This document shows positions 12,040-56,568 of a DNA stretch of 64,000 nucleotides, in pieces. The translations under genes and the position numbers were made by a program. Numbering within the stretch: position 1 is the first letter of the stretch; every line of letters starts with the position of its first letter. The notes under the pieces are model-generated. The model worked only from the letters and a program-made list of their open reading frames with translations, did no database searches and was not told the origin of the DNA. This DNA comes from Trueperaceae bacterium (GTDB taxonomy: Bacteria; Deinococcota; Deinococci; Deinococcales; Trueperaceae). The DNA lies in assembly GCA_965213925.1 (NCBI GenBank), contig OZ243927.1, forward strand, positions 32,001-96,000, in the 5' to 3' direction.

Positions 12040-12116
12040 CTCAAGAGGTATCAGAAACAACTTTAAGTCGAGCAGGTTACAACCAATAGCGCTTACTAGT
12101 TGATGATACCGACCTC

Positions 12117-12189
12117 GGGCGATTAGCTCAGTTGGAAGAGCGCCTCCCTTACAAGGAGGATGTCGGCGGTTCGAGCCCGTCATCGCCCA
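12117..12189 (+). tRNA. tRNA-Val(TAC), CCA not encoded; integration target
   Basis: GGGCGAT...ATCGCCC-A; anticodon arm CCTCC-CTTACAA-GGAGG. Confidence 0.96.
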
Positions 12190-12214
12190 CTCAAAAAAGA
12201 GCGTCAGAGACGCA
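12147..12214 (+). repeat. attL (3' half of tRNA-Val plus downstream bases)
   Basis: CCTTACAAGGAGGATGTCGGCGGTTCGAGCCCGTCATCGCCCACTCAAAAA exact 51 bp, extending to GCGTCAGAGACGCA. Confidence 0.93.
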
Positions 12215-12216
12215 GT

Positions 12217-12254
12217 AACCGGAGTAGTCAAAGAAGCTACTCCGGTTCTCTTTT
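12217..12254 (+). terminator. Element-supplied terminator after tRNA-Val
   Basis: AACCGGAGTAG / CTACTCCGGTT 11-bp stem followed by CTCTTTT. Confidence 0.65.
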
Positions 12255-12298
12255 GGCAAATGGCTGCTTAACGGCTGCTACGGATAGCAAGGCTAGAT

Positions 12299-13717
12299 AT
12301 GTCTAGCTCGCTACCATCACACAGCACAGATAAAAACTTCTTTGAAGTCGAACGCCCCTTAGAGGGTTTCAAGACAGGTATCACGCATGACGAGTGGCTC
12401 GAGCGCGTCAAGCAGTCGTTTGGCGTAGATGATGCAGGGTGGCAAACGCTCATAGAACGTAGCAGGGACACGCCTTCCCCCTTGTTACCTTCTAGGAACA
12501 ATTCAAAGCCAGCCCAAAAGCAGCCTGACCCCTGGACGGAACGCCCCGCGTTCCGCTTCCCCCGCGCTTATGTCCAAGCGTGCGGCAAAGGCACGTTGGG
12601 TCTCAAGTACGAGTCTGGGCGCATCGCCTTCAGTGCCCTTTCCTGTAACTCCTGGAGTTGCCCGTCATGCCGCCCCGCAAAATCAGCGGGATTGTTAGAT
12701 CGCCTGAGACGTGGTTTAGAATCGCGCCCCGATAGCAACCTCGGTCTAGTCACACCGACGCTTGACCCGGCACGCTTCGGCGGCGTTTGCGTGGGTACGG
12801 GCTACTACACCCAAGAAGGTCAGCCCTGGCAACCCTACGCCACGAATAAAACGCAGTTGGACACGCTGTTACGGTCAGGTCAGATACGCGCCGCGAAGAT
12901 GTACGCCGCGCCTACCCCTACGCAGTACGAACGCGCTTATAGAGCGATGAGTAAAGAAATCAACCGTCTCCTCTCTCGACTTCGCCATATTTGTAAAAAA
13001 CTCAACCTGCCTATGTTCGGTTATTTTCGCGTGGTGGAGTTGCACCGCAACGGATGGCCGCACTATCATTTAATCTTTCAACATCCAACGCTGACGGTTG
13101 ACGACGTTGCTACACAGCTTGAGGGATGGTCACTAGGGAGAATTCACTTCGAAGTGATTGAGGCTGACTTTGAGAACGGTAAGAGCGCTATTGATGTCGC
13201 TGTGGGTGAGGTTGCGCCCTACCTCGTAACCTCTGAAAGCTCGCACAAGGCGTACCAGTTTGCAGCGGACGCGCTACCCGCTAACTTTCGCTTGTGGACA
13301 TGCTCACGCGGCTTTCTAGCCGATGCACAGCCCTCCGAGTCAGAAGACCCTGTAGTGCAAGGTATCGCGCTTAAAGGGCACTTCACAGACTATCAGCGGA
13401 TGTACGAGCAGCACATGGTTTCGCGTGAACCGCTCAGCACGTCGTTAGAGCTTGTCCATGTTAAAAAAGGAACGGTGCGCGTTATACCCCCTCAACACAG
13501 ATACAGTGTTACAGCGCTCCCAGACGCGAAAAAACCGAATCAGCCTGTACGTGCAATTTCACATGTCTACCTCAAAGGAGACGACGCGCCTTTGTTCTTT
13601 GCGAACTTGGTTCACGCTGAAACGTTGCACGTGCCGCCGAAGTGGATTGCGCCTGATGGGAAGTTTAGCCAAGAGGACAGATACAAGTTTTTTAAGCTAT
13701 TAGTACGCCGTAGTTAG
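12299..13717 (+). CDS. Rolling-circle replication initiator (HUH endonuclease) with CxxxxCxxC motif
   Basis: CNSWSCPSC; motif 1-like LVTPTLDP; motif 2 VVELHRNGWPHYHLI; motif 3-like APYLV. Confidence 0.8.
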   Translation: MSSSLPSHSTDKNFFEVERPLEGFKTGITHDEWLERVKQSFGVDDAGWQTLIERSRDTPSPLLPSRNNSKPAQKQPDPWTERPAFRFPRAYVQACGKGTLGLKYESGRIAFSALSCNSWSCPSCRPAKSAGLLDRLRRGLESRPDSNLGLVTPTLDPARFGGVCVGTGYYTQEGQPWQPYATNKTQLDTLLRSGQIRAAKMYAAPTPTQYERAYRAMSKEINRLLSRLRHICKKLNLPMFGYFRVVELHRNGWPHYHLIFQHPTLTVDDVATQLEGWSLGRIHFEVIEADFENGKSAIDVAVGEVAPYLVTSESSHKAYQFAADALPANFRLWTCSRGFLADAQPSESEDPVVQGIALKGHFTDYQRMYEQHMVSREPLSTSLELVHVKKGTVRVIPPQHRYSVTALPDAKKPNQPVRAISHVYLKGDDAPLFFANLVHAETLHVPPKWIAPDGKFSQEDRYKFFKLLVRRS

Positions 13718-13751
13718 CTCGCATCAGGTATTGCTTGTGCAGCTTATCCGC

Positions 13752-13785
13752 TTGACAATTATAGGACACAACATTATTGTTGTGT
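13752..13785 (+). promoter_or_regulatory. Leaderless promoter with overlapping palindromic operator
   Basis: TTGACA(13752)-17-TATTGT(13775)-6 nt-ATG; perfect ACACAACA-TTAT-TGTTGTGT at 13766-13785. Confidence 0.75.
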
Positions 13786-13786
13786 T

Positions 13787-14347
13787 ATGATACCTCTTTT
13801 TGAAGCCAATGGGAATCTTCCACCGGGGCTTCATGAAGCTACTTGGCAAGAATTTACTTCGAGGTTTGGAGAAACTAAGCACAGGAGGGAGTTGCTTAAA
13901 GGTCTATATATCGCATTAAAAGCTTTGAAGTTGGCAGGATGTAAGCACGCCTATATAGATGGAAGCTTTACTACTACGAAAGCAGTGCCAGACTTTGATG
14001 GTTGTTGGGATGAGGAAGGAGTCAATGTAGAACTACTATTTGCCACGGAACCCGCTCTTCTTCAGTTTGACAATAAAAGGGCGGCACAGAAAGCAAGATT
14101 GCCAGACGACTTTGATGGTTGTTGGGATGAGGAAGGAGTCAATGTAGAACTACTATTTGCCACGGAACCCGCTCTTCTTCAGTTTGACAATAAAAGGGCG
14201 GCACAGAAAGCAAGATTCGGGGGTGAACTTTTTCCCTCTGGATTTCCCGCCGATAAACAACAGAGAACATTTCTTCAGTTCTTTCAGATAGATAGGGATG
14301 GTAATCCGAAGGGAATTATAGTTCTCGCATTGGAGAGCTTGCCATGA
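13787..14347 (+). CDS. DUF6932-like putative nucleotidyltransferase with internal tandem duplication
   Basis: GNLPPGLH, YIDGSFTTTK..PxDFD, FFQIDRDGNPKGII; GS...DxD nucleotidyltransferase signature. Confidence 0.75.
   Translation: MIPLFEANGNLPPGLHEATWQEFTSRFGETKHRRELLKGLYIALKALKLAGCKHAYIDGSFTTTKAVPDFDGCWDEEGVNVELLFATEPALLQFDNKRAAQKARLPDDFDGCWDEEGVNVELLFATEPALLQFDNKRAAQKARFGGELFPSGFPADKQQRTFLQFFQIDRDGNPKGIIVLALESLP
13991..14217 (+). repeat. 110-bp exact tandem duplication (13991-14100 and 14108-14217)
   Basis: GACTTTGATGGTTGTTGGG...GAAAGCAAGATT occurs twice; frame preserved. Confidence 0.95.
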
Positions 14348-15801
14348 TCAAGAATGAGCGACAATACAAGATCACAAAGAATCAAGCAGAGCGTTTTCAA
14401 GCTGCTTTAGAAGACTTAACTCGCACTCAAAATAAAGCGGACATTCACCCTATTCTACTCAAAGCTCAACAAGAGTCTTTAAGTAGTCAATTGGATGATC
14501 TCCTCGAGGAGATTGAAGAATACGAAGCTTTGCAAAGTGGTCACTACTCAGTTGTTGAACTAACCTCGCTAGAAAACTTCGCTCTTGCATTGATTCAAGC
14601 TCGTATAGCTGCAGGACTCACTCAGAATGACCTTGCTGCAAAATTGGGAATGAGAGAGCAGCAAATTCAAAGATATGAAGCAACGGAATATGCATCAGCG
14701 AGCCTTGCTGTCATACAAAAAGTGATTGATGCATTGGGAATAAGTATTCGAGAGGATATATTCTTACCAGGTGTCGATGTATCCCTCAAAAAGTTGTTCA
14801 GCCGATTAAGCAGTATTGGTATTGATCGCGAGTTCGCAACTAAAAGGCTTATACCAACTTCTATCGATCCTGACTTAGAAGAGTACGATGGAAGTCAGGT
14901 AGCTCTACAAATTGCAGCTAATGTGAACCGTGTCTTCGGTATTAGCGCTTCCCAAATCTTTGGAGATAGCACTTTGTTGCTTCCTAGTACGCCCTTAGTA
15001 GCTGCTCGTTTCAAAAAGTCGGAAGTAGTTAATGAGAATCGATTACATGCGTTTACGGTATATGCGCATTACATTGCGGCATTAGTTTTTGATGCCGTAC
15101 AACATCTACCGAAGAGAGCTATTCCCAATGAAGCTGATTTTGTTAGAGAAGCCATTCTGTCAACTGAGGGTACTATTTCTTTTGAAAGCGCTTTGAAGTA
15201 CGCATGGAGTTTAGGTATAGCAGTGATTCCTCTAGCTGACGCAGGGGCTTTTCATGGAGCATTCTGGCGCATAAGGGGGCGTAATTTGATCATACTAAAG
15301 CAACGAAATCAATCACAGGTCAGATGGCTCTTTGACCTTCTCCACGAGATGTATCACGCTGCTCAAGAACCTGAAGCTGAAGAAAGAATGATCATCGAAG
15401 AGGAAGAAATCACGCACTCTGAAGGGGGTTCGGATGATTTCAGCGATTCCGAATGGGAAGAGGTTGAAGCAAGCGATTTTGCAGATGATGTTGTGCTTGC
15501 TGGTATAGCGGATGATCTTGCTAAGCGTGCAGTTGAGCGAGCTAACGGTAGAACTGAGCGCTTGAAAGCTGTTGTGCCTCAAATTGCAGAGGAGGCAAAT
15601 GTACCCGTTGATTCTTTGGCTAATTACATTGCTTATCGTCTATCCCTACAAGGTATGGATTGGTGGGGTGCTGCCACGAATCTTCAGCAAATTGAGCCGC
15701 AGCCTTGGGAGATCGCACGAGAGTTTTTGATAGCGAATGTAGACCTCTCAAAAATTAACCCCATTGATCAAAAACTGCTTATGCAGGCTATAAGTTATTA
15801 G
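14344..15801 (+). CDS. XRE-HTH regulator fused to ImmA/IrrE (M78) metallopeptidase domain
   Basis: ARIAAGLTQNDLAAKLGMREQQIQRYE HTH; FDLLHEMYH (HExxH) and EVEASDFA; ATGA overlap. Confidence 0.85.
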   Translation: MIKNERQYKITKNQAERFQAALEDLTRTQNKADIHPILLKAQQESLSSQLDDLLEEIEEYEALQSGHYSVVELTSLENFALALIQARIAAGLTQNDLAAKLGMREQQIQRYEATEYASASLAVIQKVIDALGISIREDIFLPGVDVSLKKLFSRLSSIGIDREFATKRLIPTSIDPDLEEYDGSQVALQIAANVNRVFGISASQIFGDSTLLLPSTPLVAARFKKSEVVNENRLHAFTVYAHYIAALVFDAVQHLPKRAIPNEADFVREAILSTEGTISFESALKYAWSLGIAVIPLADAGAFHGAFWRIRGRNLIILKQRNQSQVRWLFDLLHEMYHAAQEPEAEERMIIEEEEITHSEGGSDDFSDSEWEEVEASDFADDVVLAGIADDLAKRAVERANGRTERLKAVVPQIAEEANVPVDSLANYIAYRLSLQGMDWWGAATNLQQIEPQPWEIAREFLIANVDLSKINPIDQKLLMQAISY

Positions 15802-15810
15802 GAGTTTACA

Positions 15811-16434
15811 ATGACAAAGCAAAGGCGTAAGAAAAGCGACCTTGAACCCCTGAAAATTTCTTGTACTAGTTCGAATTGCGATGAAGATTTACATTGCTTC
15901 AAAGCTACTAGACGAATGAAATTGGACGATGAAATAGGCATGTGTCGTTCTTGTGGCGTTGATCTTGTAGAGTGGGATCGCTTGAATGAGCGTAACTTAA
16001 ATGATGTCGCATATACTTTCGAAGCGTTGAGGAGAGAGCTTATAAGACATTTCTTTTGGCATGTGGATATAGATCAGAAGGCTATAAACTACGCCCGTCG
16101 TAAAGGTAAAAAAGGGATGAAAGAAGCCGTTCGCAAACGCATAGAAAGCTCAGTTGGTCCAGAGCAACCTTATCGCGACGGAACTCAAACTAAAATGCAA
16201 GATTGTGGCAACCCAATTCACTATGCACAACATGCAACCGCCTCGTGCTGTCGCACTTGCATCGAGTACTGGCATGGGATACCAAAAGGGCGTGAATTAA
16301 GTGGAGAAGAAGTAGAATACCTGTCTCAGTTAGTCATCTTGTATGTAAACGAAAGACTACCTTTTCTTTCTGAAAACGGAGAGAAGGTAGCGCCGATTCG
16401 TAAACCAAAACAGAAGGAATTGAGTGCTAAGTAA
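15811..16434 (+). CDS. DUF4186-family protein with Cys-rich N-terminal extension
   Basis: DGTQT, NPIHYAQHATASCCRTCIEYWHGIPKGRELS; N-terminal CTSSNC-HC-CRSC; AGGAG SD. Confidence 0.75.
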   Translation: MTKQRRKKSDLEPLKISCTSSNCDEDLHCFKATRRMKLDDEIGMCRSCGVDLVEWDRLNERNLNDVAYTFEALRRELIRHFFWHVDIDQKAINYARRKGKKGMKEAVRKRIESSVGPEQPYRDGTQTKMQDCGNPIHYAQHATASCCRTCIEYWHGIPKGRELSGEEVEYLSQLVILYVNERLPFLSENGEKVAPIRKPKQKELSAK

Positions 16435-17460
16435 ATGGGTTCAGCAAAAGCTATAAATACTGAGTCTGTATCTGCAAGTTATCGCTCAAAAGCTATCGAT
16501 TTAACAAATAAACGAATACTCATCACCAATTTCTTAGACACAGAACAGGAAAAAGACCTTACAACCCCGCCAAACTGTAACGGTTTTGGAAGAATAAGAC
16601 ATTTCCGCCGCCAGACAAGCGATGGTTGGCCTGTCAACCCGCTTCCTATAGACCCGGCGAGTAAGGCTCTAGGCTTATCGCATAGCGATATGATTAGGGC
16701 TCAGGTTTTCCAGAATGCTGTTTGCAATTGGAGATGTTTTTACTGCTTCGTCCCCTTCAGTCTGCTTTCGGCTAATTCTAAGTATTCAGACTGGCTTTCT
16801 GCGTCCGAACTGATGGGTCTCTATCTCGAGCAAAGCACTCCACCATCAATTATTGATCTCACTGGTGGACAACCCGATTTAGTACCCGAGTGGCTTGTAT
16901 GGATGATGCAAGAAATTACTGATCGTAAACTTGAGGAGAAAGTATATCTTTGGTCAGACGATAATCTCAGCACCGACTACTTTTGGAAATACCTTTCGAG
17001 TCGCGAGATTGATCTGATTCAGAACTATGAAGCTTATGGTCGCGTATGCTGCTTCAAAGGTTTCAATGAGTCTTCGTTTGCCTTCAATACACTGGCTGAG
17101 CCTAGCTTATTCTTCCAACAGTTTGAATTGATGAAAAGGCTGCTTTCGCTAAACCTTGATTTGTACTGTTACGTCACCTTCACCACACCTTCTCCCAAAT
17201 ATATCGAACGCGATATGAGTGATTTTATTGATCGGTTGCAAGAACTTGACGAACAGCTACCTTTGAGAACAATTCCTCTCGAAATACAAGTATTTACACC
17301 CGTAGAAAAACGCCTCAAAGATATTCATAGAACGGCGCTGGACAATCAACAAATTGCTGTGCGAGCTTGGCAGGCTGAGTTAGAGCAACGTTTTTCTCAG
17401 GAGGAACGCACACTCAACATAACAGCTATCAAGCTTAGGTCTAGGCAAAGATATAGTTAA
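16435..17460 (+). CDS. Radical SAM protein
   Basis: CNWRCFYC (CxxxCxxC), LTGGQPDL (GGEP-like); TAAATG coupling. Confidence 0.9.
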   Translation: MGSAKAINTESVSASYRSKAIDLTNKRILITNFLDTEQEKDLTTPPNCNGFGRIRHFRRQTSDGWPVNPLPIDPASKALGLSHSDMIRAQVFQNAVCNWRCFYCFVPFSLLSANSKYSDWLSASELMGLYLEQSTPPSIIDLTGGQPDLVPEWLVWMMQEITDRKLEEKVYLWSDDNLSTDYFWKYLSSREIDLIQNYEAYGRVCCFKGFNESSFAFNTLAEPSLFFQQFELMKRLLSLNLDLYCYVTFTTPSPKYIERDMSDFIDRLQELDEQLPLRTIPLEIQVFTPVEKRLKDIHRTALDNQQIAVRAWQAELEQRFSQEERTLNITAIKLRSRQRYS

Positions 17461-17480
17461 TGCTTTACTTAGAATAGCTT

Positions 17481-18011
17481 ATGATCAATCCTTCAGTCGA
17501 GCTTTATACGAAGCTCAAGAAAGCTGTATCAGGTGATGTCAAGTGGGAACATCGTATAGAAGCCCTGTCCCATCTCTACAATAGTGGAAATTCCACCCTT
17601 CACATTGCAATATTTATTGAGCCATTTCTTCAATTTGTACTTGATGGAACAAAAACATTGGAGTCACGTTTTTCGGTAAATAAACAAGCACCGTACTTAA
17701 CCTTAAATAGATACGATATCGTTTTAGTAAAACGGTCTGGAGGACCAATCGTAGCCATATCGTATGTAGAAGATGTTTGGTACTACGAACTAGACCCTTC
17801 TACCTGGAATACTATAAAAGATGATTTTTCTGTTCCTTTATGTATAAACAACACCTCTTTCTGGGATCAGAAATCTGCATCACAGTATGCAACTTTGATG
17901 CGGTTAGTCGATGTATTCCCTATTTCACCTATCGAATATAAGAAGCGTGATCAGCGAGGATGGGTAATTGTTGATTTAGAGCCTGTACAAGCGTATATGC
18001 TAGAGCTATGA
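17481..18011 (+). CDS. ASCH/PUA-domain protein
   Basis: HIAIFIEPFLQFVLDGTKTLESRFS (GxKxxExR). Confidence 0.75.
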   Translation: MINPSVELYTKLKKAVSGDVKWEHRIEALSHLYNSGNSTLHIAIFIEPFLQFVLDGTKTLESRFSVNKQAPYLTLNRYDIVLVKRSGGPIVAISYVEDVWYYELDPSTWNTIKDDFSVPLCINNTSFWDQKSASQYATLMRLVDVFPISPIEYKKRDQRGWVIVDLEPVQAYMLEL

Positions 18012-18565
18012 GCACTGTAGTAGTGAGTTTTGCTGGAGCAATAGCAAGCGGAAAAACGACGCTGACAGTAGAAGTGGCGCGGCTACTTAACTGCAAACGA
18101 GTAAGCTTTGGGGATCAAGTTCGTGCTATTGCATTGAAGTGCGGTAAAGAGCCCTCACGCGAAAATCTGCAAGCGATTGGCGAACAGCTAGTAACATACG
18201 ATATTGAGAATTTTTGCCGCGCAGTTCTCAAGCAAGGAGTATGGAAGCCAGGTCGATCTTTAGTAGTTGACGGTATCCGCCATAAAGAAGTACTAGATAC
18301 ATTGAAGATGATAGTCGCTCCGGCAAAGTTGGTACTGGTGTTTATTGATGTAAACCAAAGTACCCTTAGAGAACGTATTGAAGATAGAGCGCTATCAAAT
18401 AGAGAAATTGATGATATCCGACAGCACTCTACAGAAGTACAAGTAAGAAATGTTCTCCCTCTTGTAGCAGACCTTACGCTAGACGGTCGTAAATCGGTTG
18501 ACAAGTTGTCCAAAGAAGTAGTCGACTGGCTTTCTATGTACTCAATTCGAAACAATAAAATCTGA
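18008..18565 (+). CDS. P-loop nucleoside-monophosphate/dephospho-CoA kinase-like protein
   Basis: FAGAIASGKTT, SFGDQVR, VVDGIRH, HSTE; ATGA overlap. Confidence 0.8.
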   Translation: MSTVVVSFAGAIASGKTTLTVEVARLLNCKRVSFGDQVRAIALKCGKEPSRENLQAIGEQLVTYDIENFCRAVLKQGVWKPGRSLVVDGIRHKEVLDTLKMIVAPAKLVLVFIDVNQSTLRERIEDRALSNREIDDIRQHSTEVQVRNVLPLVADLTLDGRKSVDKLSKEVVDWLSMYSIRNNKI

Positions 18566-18632
18566 GCAACCCAATACAACATGCCGATTACATACCCTTT
18601 TTATATTGGAAGTGGAGATAGATATTCGATTT

Positions 18633-19415
18633 TCAGGCAATCTTCCACACCTCATCAACCGCTCGAGTCACATCCACCGTAAAATGAGATCGTCTTTTGG
18701 TATCGTGAATGTTACGTAGCGGGTTTATCTCAATCACTTCATCAATATGGTGCATCGCCCAAGCTTCTGCGATAAGCCTCTCGAGTAACGGCACTTTGCG
18801 CGGCATACCCTGAGTACCGCCAAGAATAGTGTTAGAACTTACCTCTCGCTTTTCGTGAAAGTAGTCTTTGTAGTCGATAAATATGCCTGATGCTCTGAGC
18901 GCCCGCTCAACATCTATAACCTCATGCTTGCTCGTAAACTTATCAAGCTCGTTGATTTTGTACCAAAAGTTTCCTAGTGCTGTCATTTCGAGTTTTCTTG
19001 GTTTTTCTTGTTCCTTGAGCAATCCCAAAAGCGTCCACATTTGCTCATACGCGCTTTTCTTTCGCTCTTCAAGCTCTCTTTTAGGAACATTAAGCCCAGC
19101 TAGGTCGTAAGCAGGGTAAATCGTAAAGGTAACGGGTCTTTCCCAGCACTTAGCAAGAATTTCTAAAGTACTAGGTCTATGCTGTAGATAACGATAGGCT
19201 ACAGCACCCTCACGAAGTTTGCGCTTCTCTTGACGTGTGATAATCGCTAGTACGTAAAGGGCGAACGCTTCATCTAGGGTGAAGCTACCTCTCTGACCAT
19301 AGTTTCCCGGCGAGCTTGGCGGCGGGACGTAACCCCTATTCCACCAGCTATAAATAGTAACCGCCGGAGTCTCGAGAAGCCTCTCCAACTCATCGCGGTC
19401 TATACGCTTCTCCAC
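18633..19415 (-). CDS. Putative element repressor with MerR-like N-terminal HTH
   Basis: DELERLLETPAVTIYSWWNRGYVPP; divergent from the xis-int operon. Confidence 0.6.
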   Translation of the reverse strand: MEKRIDRDELERLLETPAVTIYSWWNRGYVPPPSSPGNYGQRGSFTLDEAFALYVLAIITRQEKRKLREGAVAYRYLQHRPSTLEILAKCWERPVTFTIYPAYDLAGLNVPKRELEERKKSAYEQMWTLLGLLKEQEKPRKLEMTALGNFWYKINELDKFTSKHEVIDVERALRASGIFIDYKDYFHEKREVSSNTILGGTQGMPRKVPLLERLIAEAWAMHHIDEVIEINPLRNIHDTKRRSHFTVDVTRAVDEVWKIA

Positions 19416-19520
19416 GCCACACTTTACCTGTTACAATGTGAAATTCTTTACCCTAGATAGTATCTTGCGATTTACTACAAGGTAAGATAAGCTGTAACCA
19501 CCCGATAGGAGGTGGTAACG

Positions 19521-19790
19521 CTGTCTACTAAACTGGCACGCATAAGAAGCGAAACTCACCAGCAAGTTACGGAGCTTGCTGAAAGGGAGGGCGTTTCGTT
19601 CGCTGATGCTTTAGAACAGCTTGTGAGGCGCGAAGGCGAAACAGCCGATGCGACCCCGCCAGAGTCCAAAGCGAACGGTCCCATTGAATACGAGGAGCTA
19701 CCACAAGACGAAGAAAGCTCTTCTTTCGGCTCTATCGCAGTAGCGGTTATTGGAGGGCTTATAGGATTAACCCTACTGACACGACGCTAG
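19521..19790 (+). CDS. Small RHH-like protein with C-terminal transmembrane helix (probable CTG start; track GTG 19512)
   Basis: STKLARIRSETHQQVTELAEREGVSFADALEQL; C-terminal IAVAVIGGLIGLTLL; AGGAGG 8 nt before CTG. Confidence 0.55.
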   Translation: MSTKLARIRSETHQQVTELAEREGVSFADALEQLVRREGETADATPPESKANGPIEYEELPQDEESSSFGSIAVAVIGGLIGLTLLTRR

Positions 19791-19914
19791 ACCAAAAGTA
19801 AAAAAGCCCGGATGCCACCGGACTTTCTACCGAGTCACCGCGCGGTTACGCAGACTCTTTGCTTCCTAGCTATAGAGTAACACAAATTGCGTGGTGAATT
19901 CGAAAGGATTTGTC

Positions 19915-20070
19915 ATGCAATTTTTCATAGAGAGATTTCCTAAGCATTATCGCTTTCGTGTTCGTAACTTGCTCTTTGCCATGAAGCATGGTTTACCCGC
20001 GTGTAAGCGTTGGGCAAGAAGCGAACTAAAGCAACTAATAGACGACGCAAATTCAAGGCGTACTAGATGA
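19915..20070 (+). CDS. 51-aa basic protein (below ORF-track cutoff)
   Basis: GAAAGGA SD; MQFFIERFPKHYRFRVRNLLFAMKHGLPACKRWARSELKQLIDDANSRRTR; ATGA overlap with xis. Confidence 0.6.
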   Translation: MQFFIERFPKHYRFRVRNLLFAMKHGLPACKRWARSELKQLIDDANSRRTR

Positions 20071-20294
20071 GTACTTCGGCGGCGAAGCTGGAAAACTCAG
20101 ATAAACTCGAGCGTGAAGCCTACACCGTTGCTGAAGTGTCGCAAATGTTCGGCATGTCCTGTAACGCGATCTACGCTTACGTTCGTGCCGGGGACATTCC
20201 CCATAAGCGTCTCGGAAACCGCATCCTCATCCCTAAAAAGCTCTTCCACGCATGGTTAAACAGCGCTGACGCTTGGGAATCCTCCAATGGGTGA
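20067..20294 (+). CDS. xis: Excisionase / HTH_17 DNA-binding protein
   Basis: AYTVAEVSQMFGMSCNAIYAYVRAGDIPHKRLGNRILIPK; directly before integrase. Confidence 0.85.
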   Translation: MSTSAAKLENSDKLEREAYTVAEVSQMFGMSCNAIYAYVRAGDIPHKRLGNRILIPKKLFHAWLNSADAWESSNG

Positions 20295-21438
20295 GGGTAA
20301 GCGCAAGAAGAAGCGAAGTAGGGGTAACGGAGAGGGCTCAATCTACCAACTTGAAAACGGTACTTGGCGGGGACACGTTACGCGCGGTTACAACGATAAA
20401 GGTCGGCAAATCAAGAAGTGGTTTAGAGGACGCACGCGGCGTGATGTAGCCAAACAGCTTAACCAGTACCTGATGCGTTCGGGCTCACGCCTTATCTCTA
20501 TGCCTGAGAAGGTCACGGTACGTGAATGGCTCGAGCGCTACGCTTTGGAGAAAGAAGTCAAGGAGAAGACACGCGAAAGCTATCACTGGATTATACACAA
20601 TCACGTCTTTCCTGTGCTCGGAGAGATGCAGCTTTCCAAGGTGACACCGCTTCATCTCAGACAGTTTCACGCCGCACTGACAGAAAAAGAGCTTTCGGCG
20701 GACTATCGGCGCAAAATCTACTACTTCCTCAATGGAGCGTTTAGAACTGCGTTGCGCGTCGAATTGATAGAGCGTAACCCCGTCAAAGCGTTAGACCCGC
20801 CAAAATCCGCACCGCCGAAAGAAACGCCGATGTGGACGGCAAAAGAAGCGGCGGCGTTTATGAAGCATGTCAAAGAGGAACGACTATACAACGCTTACTA
20901 CATCATGCTCGCTTTAGGGTTGCGTGCTGGAGAGTGTTTCGGGCTCATGTGGGATGACCTCGAGGGCGACGCGCTTCACATAAGAAGAACGCTTACAGTT
21001 GTGAGGCACGAACTTTCTCTCGAGGCACCGAAAACGCCTAGCTCACTTCGAACGCTCTACCTATCGCCCGATCAGATTGAAATTTTTAGGTGTCAGCGTG
21101 AACAACAGAGGCTCGAGCGCAGCACCGCGAAGAGGTGGATGAAGAGCAATTTAATTTTCACTTCAAACGTAGGAACGCCGCTCAGCTTTCGTAACGTCCG
21201 CCGACGCCTTGACCAACTGACAGACCGCGCGGCGGTGACGAGGATAGGGTTACACGGTTTTAGACACACCTACGCGACGTTAGCGTTACTCAGTGGTCTA
21301 CCGCTGAAGGTTGTTTCAGAACGCTTAGGTCATAGCGACATCCGCGTTACCTCACGCATCTATGAGCACATCCACGACAAGCAGCGCCGCGCCGCCGCGC
21401 TGTCGTTGGATGAACTTCTCGAGGAGGTTGAAAAATGA
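20287..21438 (+). CDS. int: Tyrosine integrase
   Basis: RGNGEGSIYQ arm-binding N-terminus; GLRAGE, PKT, HGFRHT, LGHSD, Y catalytic residues intact. Confidence 0.96.
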   Translation: MGEGKRKKKRSRGNGEGSIYQLENGTWRGHVTRGYNDKGRQIKKWFRGRTRRDVAKQLNQYLMRSGSRLISMPEKVTVREWLERYALEKEVKEKTRESYHWIIHNHVFPVLGEMQLSKVTPLHLRQFHAALTEKELSADYRRKIYYFLNGAFRTALRVELIERNPVKALDPPKSAPPKETPMWTAKEAAAFMKHVKEERLYNAYYIMLALGLRAGECFGLMWDDLEGDALHIRRTLTVVRHELSLEAPKTPSSLRTLYLSPDQIEIFRCQREQQRLERSTAKRWMKSNLIFTSNVGTPLSFRNVRRRLDQLTDRAAVTRIGLHGFRHTYATLALLSGLPLKVVSERLGHSDIRVTSRIYEHIHDKQRRAAALSLDELLEEVEK

Positions 21439-21483
21439 ATTTGACATACGCTGTTACTGGCTGCTTCGTGGCTGCTACGGAAA

Positions 21484-21543
21484 CCCGAAAGACCTGTGAA
21501 GAGGGCAACGCGCCCCTTCACTCCTCTTCACAGGTCTTTCGGG
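21484..21543. repeat. Perfect 21-bp inverted repeat with 18-nt loop
   Basis: CCCGAAAGACCTGTGAAGAGG / CCTCTTCACAGGTCTTTCGGG. Confidence 0.9.
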
Positions 21544-21604
21544 AAAGCTGTGCAGCACGGGAAAACGTCATCACTTTATGCTTACTGGTAAAAGGGAGCG
21601 AGAA

Positions 21605-21672
21605 CCTTACAAGGAGGATGTCGGCGGTTCGAGCCCGTCATCGCCCACTCAAAAATAAGCGTCAGAGACGCA
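21605..21672 (+). repeat. attR (duplicate 3' half of tRNA-Val)
   Basis: Copy of 12147-12214 with 2 mismatches. Confidence 0.93.
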
Positions 21673-22162
21673 AAGTAGAAGCCTCGTGTAATAGCGGGGC
21701 TATCCTTTTAGCACGTTTTGACAGCTATCTTACAGCTATGGGCTCAGTTGAGCCTTTCAGATGAGCACAACATAGCGGAGGCCAGAGCCTCCGCTAATAC
21801 CTTAGAGTCGGGTTGTCCTATTACAAGTTGTTGACCTTGAGCCAATACTTATGAATACGCAACATCTCAGCGTCAGGGTGGTCTTGCGGTATTAGGTCGA
21901 GGGCGTCACCCAAATTCCCTCGATCAACGCGCCTCTATTCCAGGGGTGGCAGTCGAGCCAAACGAGTGTGCCTGTGAGGTCGCTCTCGGTGTCGCGCACA
22001 GTTGCGCCAAGGGTATAGGTGTATCAATGATATGCTGCATGTCAATCCTCCAACAGGGATTCCGAAGAGGCGAGGTTGGTAGCCGGTTGCCTCTTTGGTG
22101 CTTCTATAGTACTATCTAGTTGTACTATTGTCAACTATCTATATTAGGAGTAAGATAGTGCT

Positions 22163-22555
22163 ATGGATATACGGATACGCTTAGGAGATTACTTAGATGA
22201 GCACGACATCACCCCTTACCGCTTAGCAGCGCAGGCTGAAGGCAAAGCCGCAAAAGGCACGATCTACTCACTGTCTCGAGGTGACGTTAAACGCCTCGAT
22301 CTTGCAACTTTGTCCACTGTGATAGCTGCTTTGGAGGAGCTGACCGGGAAAAGCGTCGAAATCACCGACCTTTTGGAAAAGGTGCAGCCGCGTGAAGCAG
22401 GTATGAGTGCGGCGGGCGTGCCCTACACGGGAGACCCGGAGACCGACGCGGTACTCGACGACCACCCCGACATCTTAGAGCGCATCAAGCGCGTGGAGAC
22501 GGGAAAAGAGGGCAGTCGTCCGCTTAGCGAGGTCATGGCGGAGCTGGGGCTCTGA
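22163..22555 (+). CDS. Cro/C1-type HTH protein with antitoxin-like C-terminal tail
   Basis: IRLGDYLDEHDITPYRLA...RLDLATLSTVIAAL HTH; tail DILERIKRV...RPLSEVMAELGL; TTGTCA-17-TAAGAT-6 nt-ATG promoter. Confidence 0.75.
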   Translation: MDIRIRLGDYLDEHDITPYRLAAQAEGKAAKGTIYSLSRGDVKRLDLATLSTVIAALEELTGKSVEITDLLEKVQPREAGMSAAGVPYTGDPETDAVLDDHPDILERIKRVETGKEGSRPLSEVMAELGL

Positions 22556-22854
22556 CGTACACCGTCAAGCTCAGTGACAGCGCGGCGGCGGACTTGCGGC
22601 GCATCAAGGATAGGCGCACGCAGAAAGCCATTGCGAACGGCTTAGAGCGGCTCGAGACGGAGCCCGCGAAGCGTGGCAAGGAGCTAAAAAAAGACCTACA
22701 GGGCTACTACAGCATCCGCTTAGCGGGGCAGCGCTACCGGGCGATCTATAGCGTCGTCGTGAGTGAGGGCGAGGTAGAGGTGTTGGTTATCGGTATTAGG
22801 AAAGAGAGGGACAAGCGCGATGTTTACGAAGTCGGGAAGAAGCGTCTTCGCTGA
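22552..22854 (+). CDS. RelE/ParE-family toxin (probable CTG start in CTGA overlap)
   Basis: (M)TYTVKLSDSAAADLRRI...GKELKKDLQGYYSIRLAGQRYRAIY...IGIRK. Confidence 0.8.
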   Translation: MTYTVKLSDSAAADLRRIKDRRTQKAIANGLERLETEPAKRGKELKKDLQGYYSIRLAGQRYRAIYSVVVSEGEVEVLVIGIRKERDKRDVYEVGKKRLR

Positions 22855-22867
22855 GGAGGTGCAAAAT

Positions 22868-23113
22868 ATGACTGTGAACGACTACATGAGGCTCGAGTAC
22901 CCTCACGAGGTCATCTCTTTACCCGCCGACGAGGGTGGCAGTGTATACGTTCGCTGTCCTGACTTCGGCGCAGCAGCGGCGCAGGGCGACGGGGCGACCT
23001 TAGAGGCAGCGCTCGCCGAGGCGAACGAAGCGAAGCGCCTTACTATTGAGGTCTTGTTAGAGGACGGTCGGGATGTAGAGCCACTGCTGATCAGCAGTGG
23101 CTCTGTGCGTTAG
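22868..23113 (+). CDS. HicB-like antitoxin (orphan)
   Basis: DEGGSVYVRCPDF...GDGATLEAALAEANEAK; GAGGAGG SD. Confidence 0.7.
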   Translation: MTVNDYMRLEYPHEVISLPADEGGSVYVRCPDFGAAAAQGDGATLEAALAEANEAKRLTIEVLLEDGRDVEPLLISSGSVR

Positions 23114-23329
23114 CGCGGTTACAACCCTACAACCACAGCGTCAACCGAGGTCGTCTGGCCCAACTCTATTCTTGTAGCCTTTGCATCAATTATTGACACA
23201 CTGAGAGCGTTGCTTCGCAAAACTGCGTACACCATTGGTACAAAGCTTCGCGTCCGCGTGGTCGCGTCCCGCTAGCGACTTCGTGAACGCATCCGCTCGG
23301 GGGTCTTTAACAGGTGTGGCAAAGACCCC

Positions 23330-55491: not shown

Positions 55492-56568
55492 ATGGGGCAG
55501 TTGATTAGAATGTGGCAGTATTCATATATTCGTGTGCTTTTCTTCGTCGTCGCTGCAGCTATTCTTTACTTCTTTTTAGCAGCGACCACGGCCGTTTGGG
55601 TAAGCTTTTTGATCGCTTATACGCTCGCTTATATCGCCAATCCAGTCGTGAGCAAACTCGAGCGTGTGCGGGTGCCGCGTTGGGCGGGTGTGGCGCTCAC
55701 GATGCTCTTACTCGCCGCCTTACTGAGCGTCGCGTCATTTGTTTTAGGGCGTATCGGCTTGGAGTTGACGGGCTTTGTCGAAACGTTGCCGGAGACCGCT
55801 GCGACCGTCGAGGAGCTACCCGAGCGCATCGAACGCAATTTGTCCAACGAGTGGCAACCTTTCTTTCGGCAGAGCTTTAACACATTAGAAGCTTGGGTTG
55901 GGGGTCAGGCGAGCCGGGCGGCGGGGTGGCTCGAGGCCCACAGCAGTGACCTCATCGCGGGCTTCGCTAGCTTAGTCGGCGGCATTTTCCAGTTCTTTAT
56001 CACCTTGGTCTTGACCACGTATCTGCTCTACAGCTTCCCCGACTTTAGCCATAGCTTCTATAGGCTCTTCCCGCCGAGACACCGCGAAGGCGTCAGAGAA
56101 GTCGCCTACAAGCTCGACAACGTCGTGGGAAGTTATGTGCGGGCGCAGCTCCTCGTCGCCGCGCTCGTCGGGCTCTGCGTCTGGCTCGGTCTTTGGGCGT
56201 TGGGCGTTCCGCTCCCTCTCGCCATCGGGTTTTTAGCGGGCGTCGGCAACCTCGTTCCCTTTCTAGGACCGATTTTAGCCAGCATCCCCGCGCTGCTGCT
56301 CGCCGTAGGCGAAGGTTGGGGACAAACCCTCGGGACGCTCGCCCTCTTTCTCATCGTCAACCAGGTGGACACGCACGTCTTTAGCCCGCTCATCTTGTCA
56401 AAAAGTAACCACATCCACCCTGTCACGGTGATTTTAGCGGTGCTTTTAGGGCTCAGCTTGTGGGGTATTTTAGGGGCACTTGTCGCGGTGCCTGTGGCGG
56501 CAGTTATCAAGCTCTTATACGAGGAATATTACTTGGAGAGCCGCTGGTACCGAAAGTCTAGGGCGTAA
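55492..56568 (+). CDS. AI-2E family transporter
   Basis: LAYIANP, YVRAQL, VPFLGP, HPVTVILAVLLG...GALVAVP; TATGAT 6 nt before ATG 55492. Confidence 0.9.
   Translation: MGQLIRMWQYSYIRVLFFVVAAAILYFFLAATTAVWVSFLIAYTLAYIANPVVSKLERVRVPRWAGVALTMLLLAALLSVASFVLGRIGLELTGFVETLPETAATVEELPERIERNLSNEWQPFFRQSFNTLEAWVGGQASRAAGWLEAHSSDLIAGFASLVGGIFQFFITLVLTTYLLYSFPDFSHSFYRLFPPRHREGVREVAYKLDNVVGSYVRAQLLVAALVGLCVWLGLWALGVPLPLAIGFLAGVGNLVPFLGPILASIPALLLAVGEGWGQTLGTLALFLIVNQVDTHVFSPLILSKSNHIHPVTVILAVLLGLSLWGILGALVAVPVAAVIKLLYEEYYLESRWYRKSRA

Follow-up and report, generated by a model that had tools for sequence, protein, structure and literature searches.

Elements of the pSAM2 type in actinomycetes combine an integrase gene (int), an excisionase gene (xis) and a rolling-circle Rep, integrate into tRNA genes and replicate after excision; pSAM2 itself also encodes an FtsK-like transfer protein (Tra) and spread genes, and has a rep-xis-int operon. 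Origins placed inside the initiator gene are known from phages phiX174 and P2, whose gene A proteins nick at origins within gene A. The layout of an integrase plus a rolling-circle Rep is already known from pSAM2-type elements and from streptococcal integrative mobilizable elements (IMEs). In the excerpted text of an IME review (PMC5704250), 118 of 144 streptococcal IMEs encode putative relaxases that resemble rolling-circle replication (RCR) initiators, 35 of those 118 without a coupling protein, and the replication of excised IMEs is described as unstudied. Here we describe a 9.5-kb island at positions 12147-21672 of a 64,000-nt stretch of DNA (the window) from a Trueperaceae bacterium of the phylum Deinococcota (assembly GCA_965213925.1, contig OZ243927.1, positions 32,001 to 96,000 of the forward strand), which we identify as a site-specific integrative element in the 3′ half of a tRNA-Val(TAC) gene. 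It is in our judgement probable, though by no means assured, that this apparently intact element, which encodes an HUH endonuclease (Rep), would excise as a 9.5-kb circle and replicate by the rolling-circle mechanism from an origin within rep.

With pSAM2 the element shares int, xis and a rolling-circle Rep in a tRNA gene, and 9 of 40 distant relatives of its Rep weakly match RepSA of pSAM2 (PF20199); it differs in having no FtsK/Tra domain and in that rep lies across attP from int, and the window Rep itself gave no RepSA match at E <= 0.01. Like the gene A proteins of phiX174 and P2 in textbook accounts, it would be an HUH initiator with the origin in its own gene, and it weakly matches Phage_GPA (0.0048, below the family cut-off; stronger in some relatives), but its tyrosine pair is 11 residues apart (Y308, Y319) and not of the YxxxY form, and it has an N-terminal Cys cluster. 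The Pfam family that it matches is named after inovirus G2P and plectrovirus ORF2, and integrating inoviruses and their satellites (Pf4-type, RS1) also enter tRNA genes with an integrase; the window element differs from these in having no Zot/pI, coat or single-stranded DNA (ssDNA)-binding gene. Inoviruses occur in Deinococcus-Thermus according to the excerpted text of an inovirus survey (PMC6813254), which would miss the window element because it defines inoviruses by pI. The thaumarchaeal 'cryptic integrated element' NitAQ6f-E2 carries an RCR Rep and, as far as its description in PMC6563490 goes, is likewise small, bears an integrase and has neither virion nor conjugation genes; its host is archaeal and its Rep SNJ1/IS91-related, and the two are likened by description, not by sequence. 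The streptococcal IME_Sga2069_rpmE and IMESag-rpsI, as presented in PMC5704250, likewise have a tyrosine integrase at the 3′ end of a conserved gene, a rolling-circle HUH protein, cargo and no mating-pore genes. They belong to another phylum, have initiators of the Rep_trans, Rep_2, PHA00330 and Viral_Rep types versus the PF23343 clade here, and target ribosomal-protein genes, whereas the window element lies in a tRNA gene, has no coupling protein and carries its candidate origin inside rep. A first-pass annotation of the window had known of no described element of this layout in Deinococcota; a literature search for such an element in Deinococcus found nothing relevant, which agrees with that statement as far as Deinococcus goes, but the layout as such is that of the IMEs in PMC5704250. 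What is new is the small unnamed PF23343 Rep clade, together with the motif inside its rep genes, its connection to mini-circles and to Zot-bearing genomes, and the host phylum.

Three tRNA genes were found in the window (Lys, Glu and Val(TAC); ARAGORN, with Rfam in agreement). A direct repeat of 77 nt with 92% identity, containing a core of 51 nt that is exactly identical in both copies, bounds the island (Table 1). The core starts at the anticodon arm, and a 30-nt piece of it has exactly two copies in the window versus none in 100 shuffles. The G + C content (GC) is 0.60-0.65 in the flanks and 0.38-0.53 within the island. At the right end orf59, xis and int overlap successively at their start and stop codons, xis and int by 8 nt. 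Xis scores above the curated cut-off of its family, and all of R213, K249, H323, R326, H349 and Y359 are present in Int, which we take, by the known motifs, to be the catalytic R-K-H-R-H/W-Y set; these residue numbers and the exact limits of the core were read off the sequence. The first-pass annotation had proposed just such an element in tRNA-Val, with att repeats from the anticodon loop at the same coordinates and an intact integrase and Xis, and borders, integrase and excisionase are all present as it described them. Among 128 genomes of the family, the nearest integrases have 45-46% identity, and matches at E <= 1e-30 occur in 42 (G324 included).

Rep scored 32.8 bits against PF23343 (REP_ORF2-G2P, 'replication-associated protein ORF2/G2P'), for which the cut-off is 27.8; no literature mentioning this family was found. 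In an alignment of the window Rep with 17 relatives, a Cys cluster (C95 ... C116-x4-C121-x2-C124), T152/T154 of motif I, the HUH motif H255-Y256-H257, and Y308, E313, K317 and Y319 were invariant in all 18 sequences. The HUH Rep with a CxxxxCxxC motif that had been noted earlier is thereby substantiated, and Y308 and Y319 are candidate catalytic tyrosines. With the AlphaFold model of Rep (pLDDT 71.6), Foldseek returned nothing at E <= 0.001, and a sequence search of the PDB with the Rep profile gave a best E of 0.39. With VIA-align, the best two of 48,161 chains were both HUH nucleases, namely SIRV1 ORF119 (2x3g; Z 8.2, rmsd 3.7, 114 of 116 residues aligned) and a Helitron HUH domain (7lcc; Z 7.4, rmsd 3.4, 177 aligned), with AAV5 Rep (Z 5.6) and RepB of pMV158 (Z 5.4) lower down. 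These Z values are middling yet appear consistent with the motifs.

An exhaustive hidden Markov model (HMM) search of 1.84 billion representatives returned 19 at E <= 1e-30, 33 at E <= 1e-10 and 585 at E <= 0.001, with a gap between 1e-41 and 1e-17; the clade of the window Rep is small, as judged by the 19 representatives and the gap that follows. Of 40 proteins past the gap, 32 match PF23343, with weak second matches to RepSA (9, as above), Rep_1 (5), Phage_GPA (2) and Zn_Tnp_IS91 (1); Y1/Y2 transposase domains were found in none of the 40 and not in the window Rep. A word-indexed search returned 104 proteins, unnamed except for one partial 'hypothetical protein', on contigs mostly of 1.4-3.7 kb whose lengths recur inside Rep clusters (for example 2299, 2300, 2301, 2301 and 2302 nt). 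There was no tblastn match in PLSDB plasmids or INPHARED phages, and a scan of genome contigs with the single Rep protein found no relative; neither did a two-peptide-pattern scan of IMG/VR, which is pattern-limited and does not prove absence. Among 185,579 species genomes one relative was found, on a 3640-nt contig (L002) of a 'Deinococci bacterium' metagenome-assembled genome (MAG). When 364 genomes of the phylum were searched with a profile, three matched strongly (the source genome, MAG G325 of the same family, and G321), and 6 of 19 genomes from another family did so weakly (1e-6 to 1e-9). The locus of G325 (L067) is contained in L002, and the partial rep of G321 (L096), at the end of a 6.8-kb contig of low GC in a fragmented MAG, without tRNA or int, is uninformative.

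A metagenome scan kept 63 Rep loci (L003-L065). Identical ends of 95-163 nt were found in 32 of the 64 loci L002-L065; these are regarded as circular, because k-mer assembly of a circular molecule characteristically leaves such terminal overlaps. Longer contigs were head-to-tail concatemers of 2-6 kb units (three of ~2.2 kb in L007, two each in L020 and L026, and ~3.5 of ~5.9 kb in L049). Many circular contigs of 2.0-2.6 kb carry Rep and one or two ORFs (open reading frames) of 90-130 aa alone; these accessory proteins include a ~100-aa protein in 34 loci and a ribbon-helix-helix (RHH)-like protein in 28, neither with a Pfam family. The Rep-only mini-circles are among the smallest Rep-bearing circles, and their putative host link is the one Deinococci MAG bin. 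A Pfam scan of 72 ORFs from 12 of the Rep-bearing loci found Zot in L059, L057, L063 and L064, with a secretin also in L057, and in other loci SieB (L027) and an IS200-type gene (L043). L049 and L060 were labelled Zot-bearing by their L059-like ORF layout and near-identical Rep, not by a scan of their own; the Zot-bearing loci are genomes of 5.5-8 kb. In a Rep tree (quick IQ-TREE, 69 rows, two loci with a Rep match of <250 residues left out), Zot-bearing loci fall at three or more places amid Rep-only circles, and the window Rep groups (SH-aLRT 97) with its closest relatives, P0001, P0002 and P0003, encoded on contigs of 11.2, 9.95 and 7.5 kb. Because its relatives sit on circular 2-6 kb contigs and none of the 40 distant ones matches a Y1/Y2 transposase family, the conclusion that Rep is an HUH enzyme of the replicative, not the transposase, kind is supported. 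Separately, L051 (7919 nt) holds two copies of the Rep family, a Rep_trans initiator (PF02486, 1e-13) and RHH genes; different small replicons are joined in it, either as a co-integrate or through chimeric assembly.

When k-mers were counted over all loci, one stretch within rep, CCTTGTTACCTCTAGGAACAACT, proved to be common far more widely than its surroundings. When up to two substitutions per half were allowed, the 21-24-nt motif was found in 60 of 65 related loci; indel variants in L017 and L029 bring this to 62 of 65, and L006, L063 and L064 are without it. The reverse strands of all loci gave one match. The flanks of the motif are, on both sides, unrelated between clades. In the window the motif has one extra T in its central TCTA, like L022, and upstream of it reads P-L-L-P-S-R-N-N-S, versus L-V-T-S-R-N-N-S in most relatives; it is the DNA, not the peptide, that is conserved here, because the window uses another frame upstream of the extra T. 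The codons of the motif are AT-rich for a lineage of 60% GC. It occurs once in the 4.7-Mb genome (reversed control 0); a loose match at window position 56262, found with up to two substitutions per half and not with a one-mismatch pattern, is probably due to chance. As a palindrome the motif pairs in 98.7% of cells, in a sequence that is almost invariant. We propose that it is the Rep recognition and nick site, and hence the candidate double-strand origin.

Once the element had circularized, the order across the junction would be the int stop (21438), a pair of 11-nt units, a 21-bp inverted repeat, the 51-nt core, a 12-bp hairpin, a second 11-nt pair and the rep ATG (12299). That int, attP and rep become contiguous and co-oriented in the circle, as the first-pass annotation had stated, follows from this geometry. 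Its further suggestion, that rep could be switched on only in the circle, is not supported: simple read-through from int to rep is disfavoured because two hairpins (12217-12247 and 21484-21543) intervene. The 11-nt pairs flanking attP are candidate arm-type Int sites, and the 21-bp inverted repeat could be either the int terminator or a candidate single-strand origin. We propose that Int and Xis, expressed from the overlapping orf59-xis-int unit with a putative divergent regulator, would excise the 9.5-kb circle; that Rep would nick the plus strand at 12479-12503 within its own gene, in the manner of the phiX174 and P2 proteins, and then drive rolling-circle replication; that the long hairpin beside attP may prime the complementary strand; and that Int would re-integrate the circle via the 51-nt core with its two flanking pairs of arm-like repeats. 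With neither transfer nor virion functions of its own, the element would have to spread by way of a helper or of transformation. Searches with Pfam, NCBIfam, PHROGs and PADLOC found in it no capsid, terminase, portal, packaging or Zot gene and no named-family relaxase, coupling or mating-pore (type IV secretion system) protein, which upholds the earlier statement that capsid and conjugation genes are absent; no element ORF gave an FtsK/SpoIIIE-type match.

Several observations weigh against excision and replication as proposed here. The assembly holds a single rep copy, which is chromosomal, and no episomal contig. Neither a circular or element-skipping junction nor excess copies or ssDNA were seen, although the Logan contigs, in which the four public runs were analysed, end at the 51-nt att core and could not have shown them. 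Nicking at the motif we infer from its conservation and by analogy with gene A proteins, and its putative hairpin shows no covariation or compensatory change across loci and folds weakly (-3.3 kcal/mol, z -0.9). In a promoter scan no site was seen ahead of rep, and such sites were overall no commoner than in shuffles. Eleven other element proteins had no blastp match among 1164 ORFs of the 64 loci, and HMMs of six accessory clusters of the mini-circles had none in the six frames of the element. The function of the cargo is unproven, since its viperin-like scores lie far below curated cut-offs.

If the element does replicate as proposed, it offers a concrete example of a minimal rolling-circle replicon turned chromosomal island, in a phylum with few described mobile elements. 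Its candidate origin sequence can be named and lends itself to a straightforward nicking assay. Judging by the Rep relatives, 2-kb Rep-only circles and filamentous phages may form a continuum, which the element would tie to a cultivable host, and the ~1.5-kb cassette of rep and origin could become the backbone of a small Deinococcus vector.

Table 1 Features of the element and its surroundings in the window
Feature	Position	Strand	Description
tRNA-Val(TAC)	12117..12190	+	ARAGORN, Rfam; closes Lys-Glu-Val tRNA cluster; integration target; element copy of 3′ half rebuilds the tRNA
attL	12138..12214		77-nt repeat; exact core 12147-12197 (51 nt), anticodon arm to beyond tRNA 3′ end
Terminator-like hairpin	12217..12247	+	12 pairs then CTCTTTT; element-supplied; between att core and rep
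Two tandem 11-nt units (..GGCTGCT..)	12259..12282	+	Counterpart of the pair at 21458-21479
rep	12299..13717	+	472-aa HUH endonuclease, PF23343 clade (PF23343 9e-8)
Candidate nick site/double-strand origin	12479..12503	+	CCCTTGTTACCTTCTAGGAACAATT; imperfect palindrome within rep
DUF6932 protein	13787..14347	+	PADLOC PDC-M63A 3e-11; in-frame 117-nt tandem duplication
HTH_3 protein	14344..15801	+	485 aa; PHROG 18577 5e-18
DUF4186 protein	15811..16434	+	Cargo
Radical SAM protein	16435..17460	+	CNWRCFYC; uncharacterised family
ASCH-like protein	17481..18011	+	176 aa; language-model lead alone (0.98)
P-loop nucleotide-kinase-like protein	18008..18565	+	AAA_18 3.5e-12; PADLOC VakA (viperin-associated kinase) 1.7e-6
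Orphan ORF	18633..19415	-	260 aa; divergent from the orf92-xis-int side; candidate regulator
orf92	19512..19790	+	92 aa; N-terminal part weakly ribbon-helix-helix YlcI/YnfO-like (8e-4)
Terminator-like hairpin	19801..19828		3′ of orf92
orf59	19891..20070	+	59-aa basic ORF, no family; stop overlaps xis start
xis	20067..20294	+	Excisionase family; HTH_17 1e-12, TIGR01764 4e-8 (33.5 bits, cut-off 28.8)
int	20287..21438	+	Tyrosine recombinase, 383 aa; Phage_integrase 9e-20, PHROG 1 2e-65
Two 11-nt TGGCTGCT units	21458..21479	+	Second pair, see 12259-12282
21-bp perfect inverted repeat	21484..21543	+	Between int and attR; DNA fold -26 kcal/mol, z -7.4
attR	21596..21672		Partial tRNA-Val copy, anticodon arm to 3′ end + 24 nt; exact core 21605-21655
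HTH (helix-turn-helix) ORF	22163-22555		In segment 21673-23076, right of attR
ParE/RelE-like ORF	22594-22854		In segment 21673-23076
HicB-like ORF	22820-23113		Right of attR

The element might instead be a capsid-less derivative or satellite of a filamentous phage, with an inovirus-type Rep and origin and with cargo in place of the morphogenesis genes, its ssDNA being packaged and exported only with coat proteins and the Zot-type assembly ATPase of a helper inovirus, much as RS1 relies on CTXphi in Vibrio. The Zot-bearing loci (L059/L060/L049, L057 with its secretin, and L063/L064) at three or more places in the Rep tree speak for this, and the C-terminal part of the orf92 product is a hydrophobic helix that finishes in RR, a basic tail. 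In the excerpts of the inovirus survey, moreover, prophages with att sites in tRNAs or beside integrases are common (PMC6813254). We nevertheless hold a satellite to be unlikely. Zot is absent from the 13 ORFs of the element (Pfam, PHROGs), and the 96.9%-complete genome as a whole has no PF05707; in the element we recognised no feature of a coat, ssDNA-binding or packaging-signal kind and nothing akin to the accessory proteins that the Zot-bearing loci carry, and the Rep clade that the window shares with P0001-P0003 has no Zot-linked member as far as inspected. A wider picture, in which the element and the 2-6 kb circles form one undescribed ssDNA replicon lineage associated with Deinococcota, its Rep carrying the origin in its own gene, and running from Rep-only circles through Zot phages to an integrating capsid-less satellite with anti-phage cargo exported by a helper inovirus, is a doubtful one; if true, it would mean a defence island travelling as a phage parasite. 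A satellite of the phage-inducible chromosomal island (PICI) type was considered separately and rejected, as PHROG and Pfam matches include no primase-replicase and no capsid- or packaging-redirection gene.

Sequences related to the element were also found elsewhere. In G258, of the same genus, the sequence after the tRNA cluster is 94.6% identical to window 12114-12261, past the att repeat into the left end of the element. It is followed by a DUF433 and DUF5615/PIN-like pair, by a fragment of rep (residues 372-472, 75% identity) and then by phenylacetate-catabolism genes, with no int and no second att copy within 15 kb. This remnant (L114, G258:C4:4268000-4283400, about 13337-14800), in which the last 101 rep codons are kept, is in our reading of its sequence a decayed relative of the element at the same tRNA-Val. 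Among public runs, two of one sample hold 86-98% of the words of the element and are probably the source of its assembly, and three marine-metagenome runs of another study hold 22-39%. Contigs of two marine runs (X3 and X4) together cover 12204-20283 at 90-99%, with 39 differences in 3575 nt for a cargo piece (13637-17325) and ~8% differences for rep pieces; one X3 contig matches to 20283, where int starts in the window, and continues with 149 letters of other sequence. The rep-cargo-xis backbone thus exists elsewhere with different sequence after xis. That X3 and X4 do not cover 20588-21361 (int), that X8 covers neither element nor flanks and that X7 and X8 hold almost no words is in no case evidence of absence. 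In the likely source run, contig depth was 9-13 in the element versus 14-25 in the flanks, contig depth being no measure of copy number. The first-pass annotation had advised looking in relatives for the same backbone with different cargo at tRNA-Val; G258 has a decayed copy at that site, and the marine runs have a backbone with other sequence after xis.

The decay in G258, where a toxin-antitoxin pair has been inserted beside the rep 3′ fragment and int and attR are missing, shows how the island could also be a fixed relic, integrated once, no longer able to excise or replicate and kept for its cargo alone. The 117-nt internal duplication in one cargo gene and the lack of an episomal contig would fit a relic. 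All backbone ORFs are open, however, the att core is identical across 51 nt, the origin motif and the invariant residues of Rep and Int are intact, and the near-identical backbone with other sequence after xis argues for recent exchange; we regard a relic as distinctly unlikely.

Improbable, too, is an IME whose HUH protein acts mainly as a relaxase at an origin of transfer (oriT) and which is moved by the mating apparatus of a conjugative element. The IMEs counted above (PMC5704250), many with RCR-initiator-like putative relaxases and some of these without a coupling protein, offer a precedent, and Rep could double as a relaxase. A single coupling-protein gene is also present in the genome (PF02534, 2e-32); it lies ~13 kb away from the integrase paralogue nearest to that of the element (46% identity), near ArdC-, ParB- and SSB (ssDNA-binding protein)-like genes. 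Against this, VirB4 (PF03135) was not found in the 96.9%-complete genome, the island with the coupling protein is mosaic and ridden with insertion sequences (ISs), and the Rep relatives examined are all on replicons too small for anything but self-replicating circles or phages. That island (G000:C1:2622000-2647000; L117, L118) contains the integrase paralogue, type I restriction fragments, a Gp49/HTH_37 pair, IS elements, ArdC-like, ParB-like and SSB genes and the TraG/VirD4-type coupling protein, and has the look of a ruined conjugative element; the genome sequence points to no functional helper.

That the HUH protein is an IS91/IS200-type transposase and the island merely contains an insertion sequence, a grouping that the first-pass annotation had named, together with the lack of any circular form, as fatal to its view, can be all but dismissed: the Cys cluster N-terminal of the HUH domain is as in IS91, one of the 40 distant relatives has a weak Zn_Tnp_IS91 match (1e-4) and the Helitron domain is the second-best structural match (Z 7.4), but neither the window Rep nor any of the 40 has Y1_Tnp or Y2_Tnp, gene and motif are single-copy in the genome, and the relatives, some of them with Zot, are found on contigs that are circular or concatemeric.

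Cargo of unknown or defence-like function is about half of the element (~5 kb, low GC), so the word 'minimal' in the earlier description does not fit. The first two cargo genes are a DUF6932/HTH pair. The last four (15811-18565; DUF4186, radical SAM, ASCH-like and P-loop kinase, GC 0.38-0.44) form a cassette that is possibly an undescribed nucleotide-modifying defence system, and the cargo is plausibly anti-phage. The radical SAM protein has 3249 relatives, among which the few named ones in the matches listed are cyanobacterial, with 63-66% identity. It is weakly viperin-like (NF038283, 17.6 bits versus a cut-off of 180; PADLOC pVip, 2e-4), and its identification as a prokaryotic viperin was rejected, the scores being far under the curated cut-offs. 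In the 485-aa HTH_3 protein, the C-terminal part bears a weak likeness to metallopeptidase/antitoxin regulators (RmrA 7e-8, spr1629 6e-7). No literature naming DUF6932 was found. The duplication in the DUF6932 gene is an exact 110-nt copy (13991-14100 = 14108-14217) at 117-nt spacing, or 39 codons in frame. It is collapsed in all Logan contigs of the source and the metagenomes (joint 13985->14100), as k-mer assembly collapses such repeats regardless; the duplication is therefore treated as a candidate.

The ORF on the opposite strand between cargo and orf92 may be a regulator. The 'divergent repressor' of the first-pass annotation is there as an ORF, but the label of repressor is not sustained: the 260-aa product matches none of the families in Pfam, NCBIfam, PHROGs or PADLOC, a word-limited search of 5.8 billion proteins yielded no relative and neither did the PDB, and the lead to a MerR-type HTH is weak (13-22% of linked clusters carry MerR_1; score 0.92).

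To the right of attR lies a further segment of 1.4 kb (21673-23076, GC ~0.52) with the last three ORFs of Table 1. In G257, of the same genus, the homologue of window 23077-23174 (78%) begins 7 nt after tRNA-Val, which allows an indirect comparison with an empty site, and the segment is absent; it is probably what is left of an older insertion into this tRNA gene. Relative to G257 the segment is extra as well as the element. The tRNA-Val site is a hotspot.

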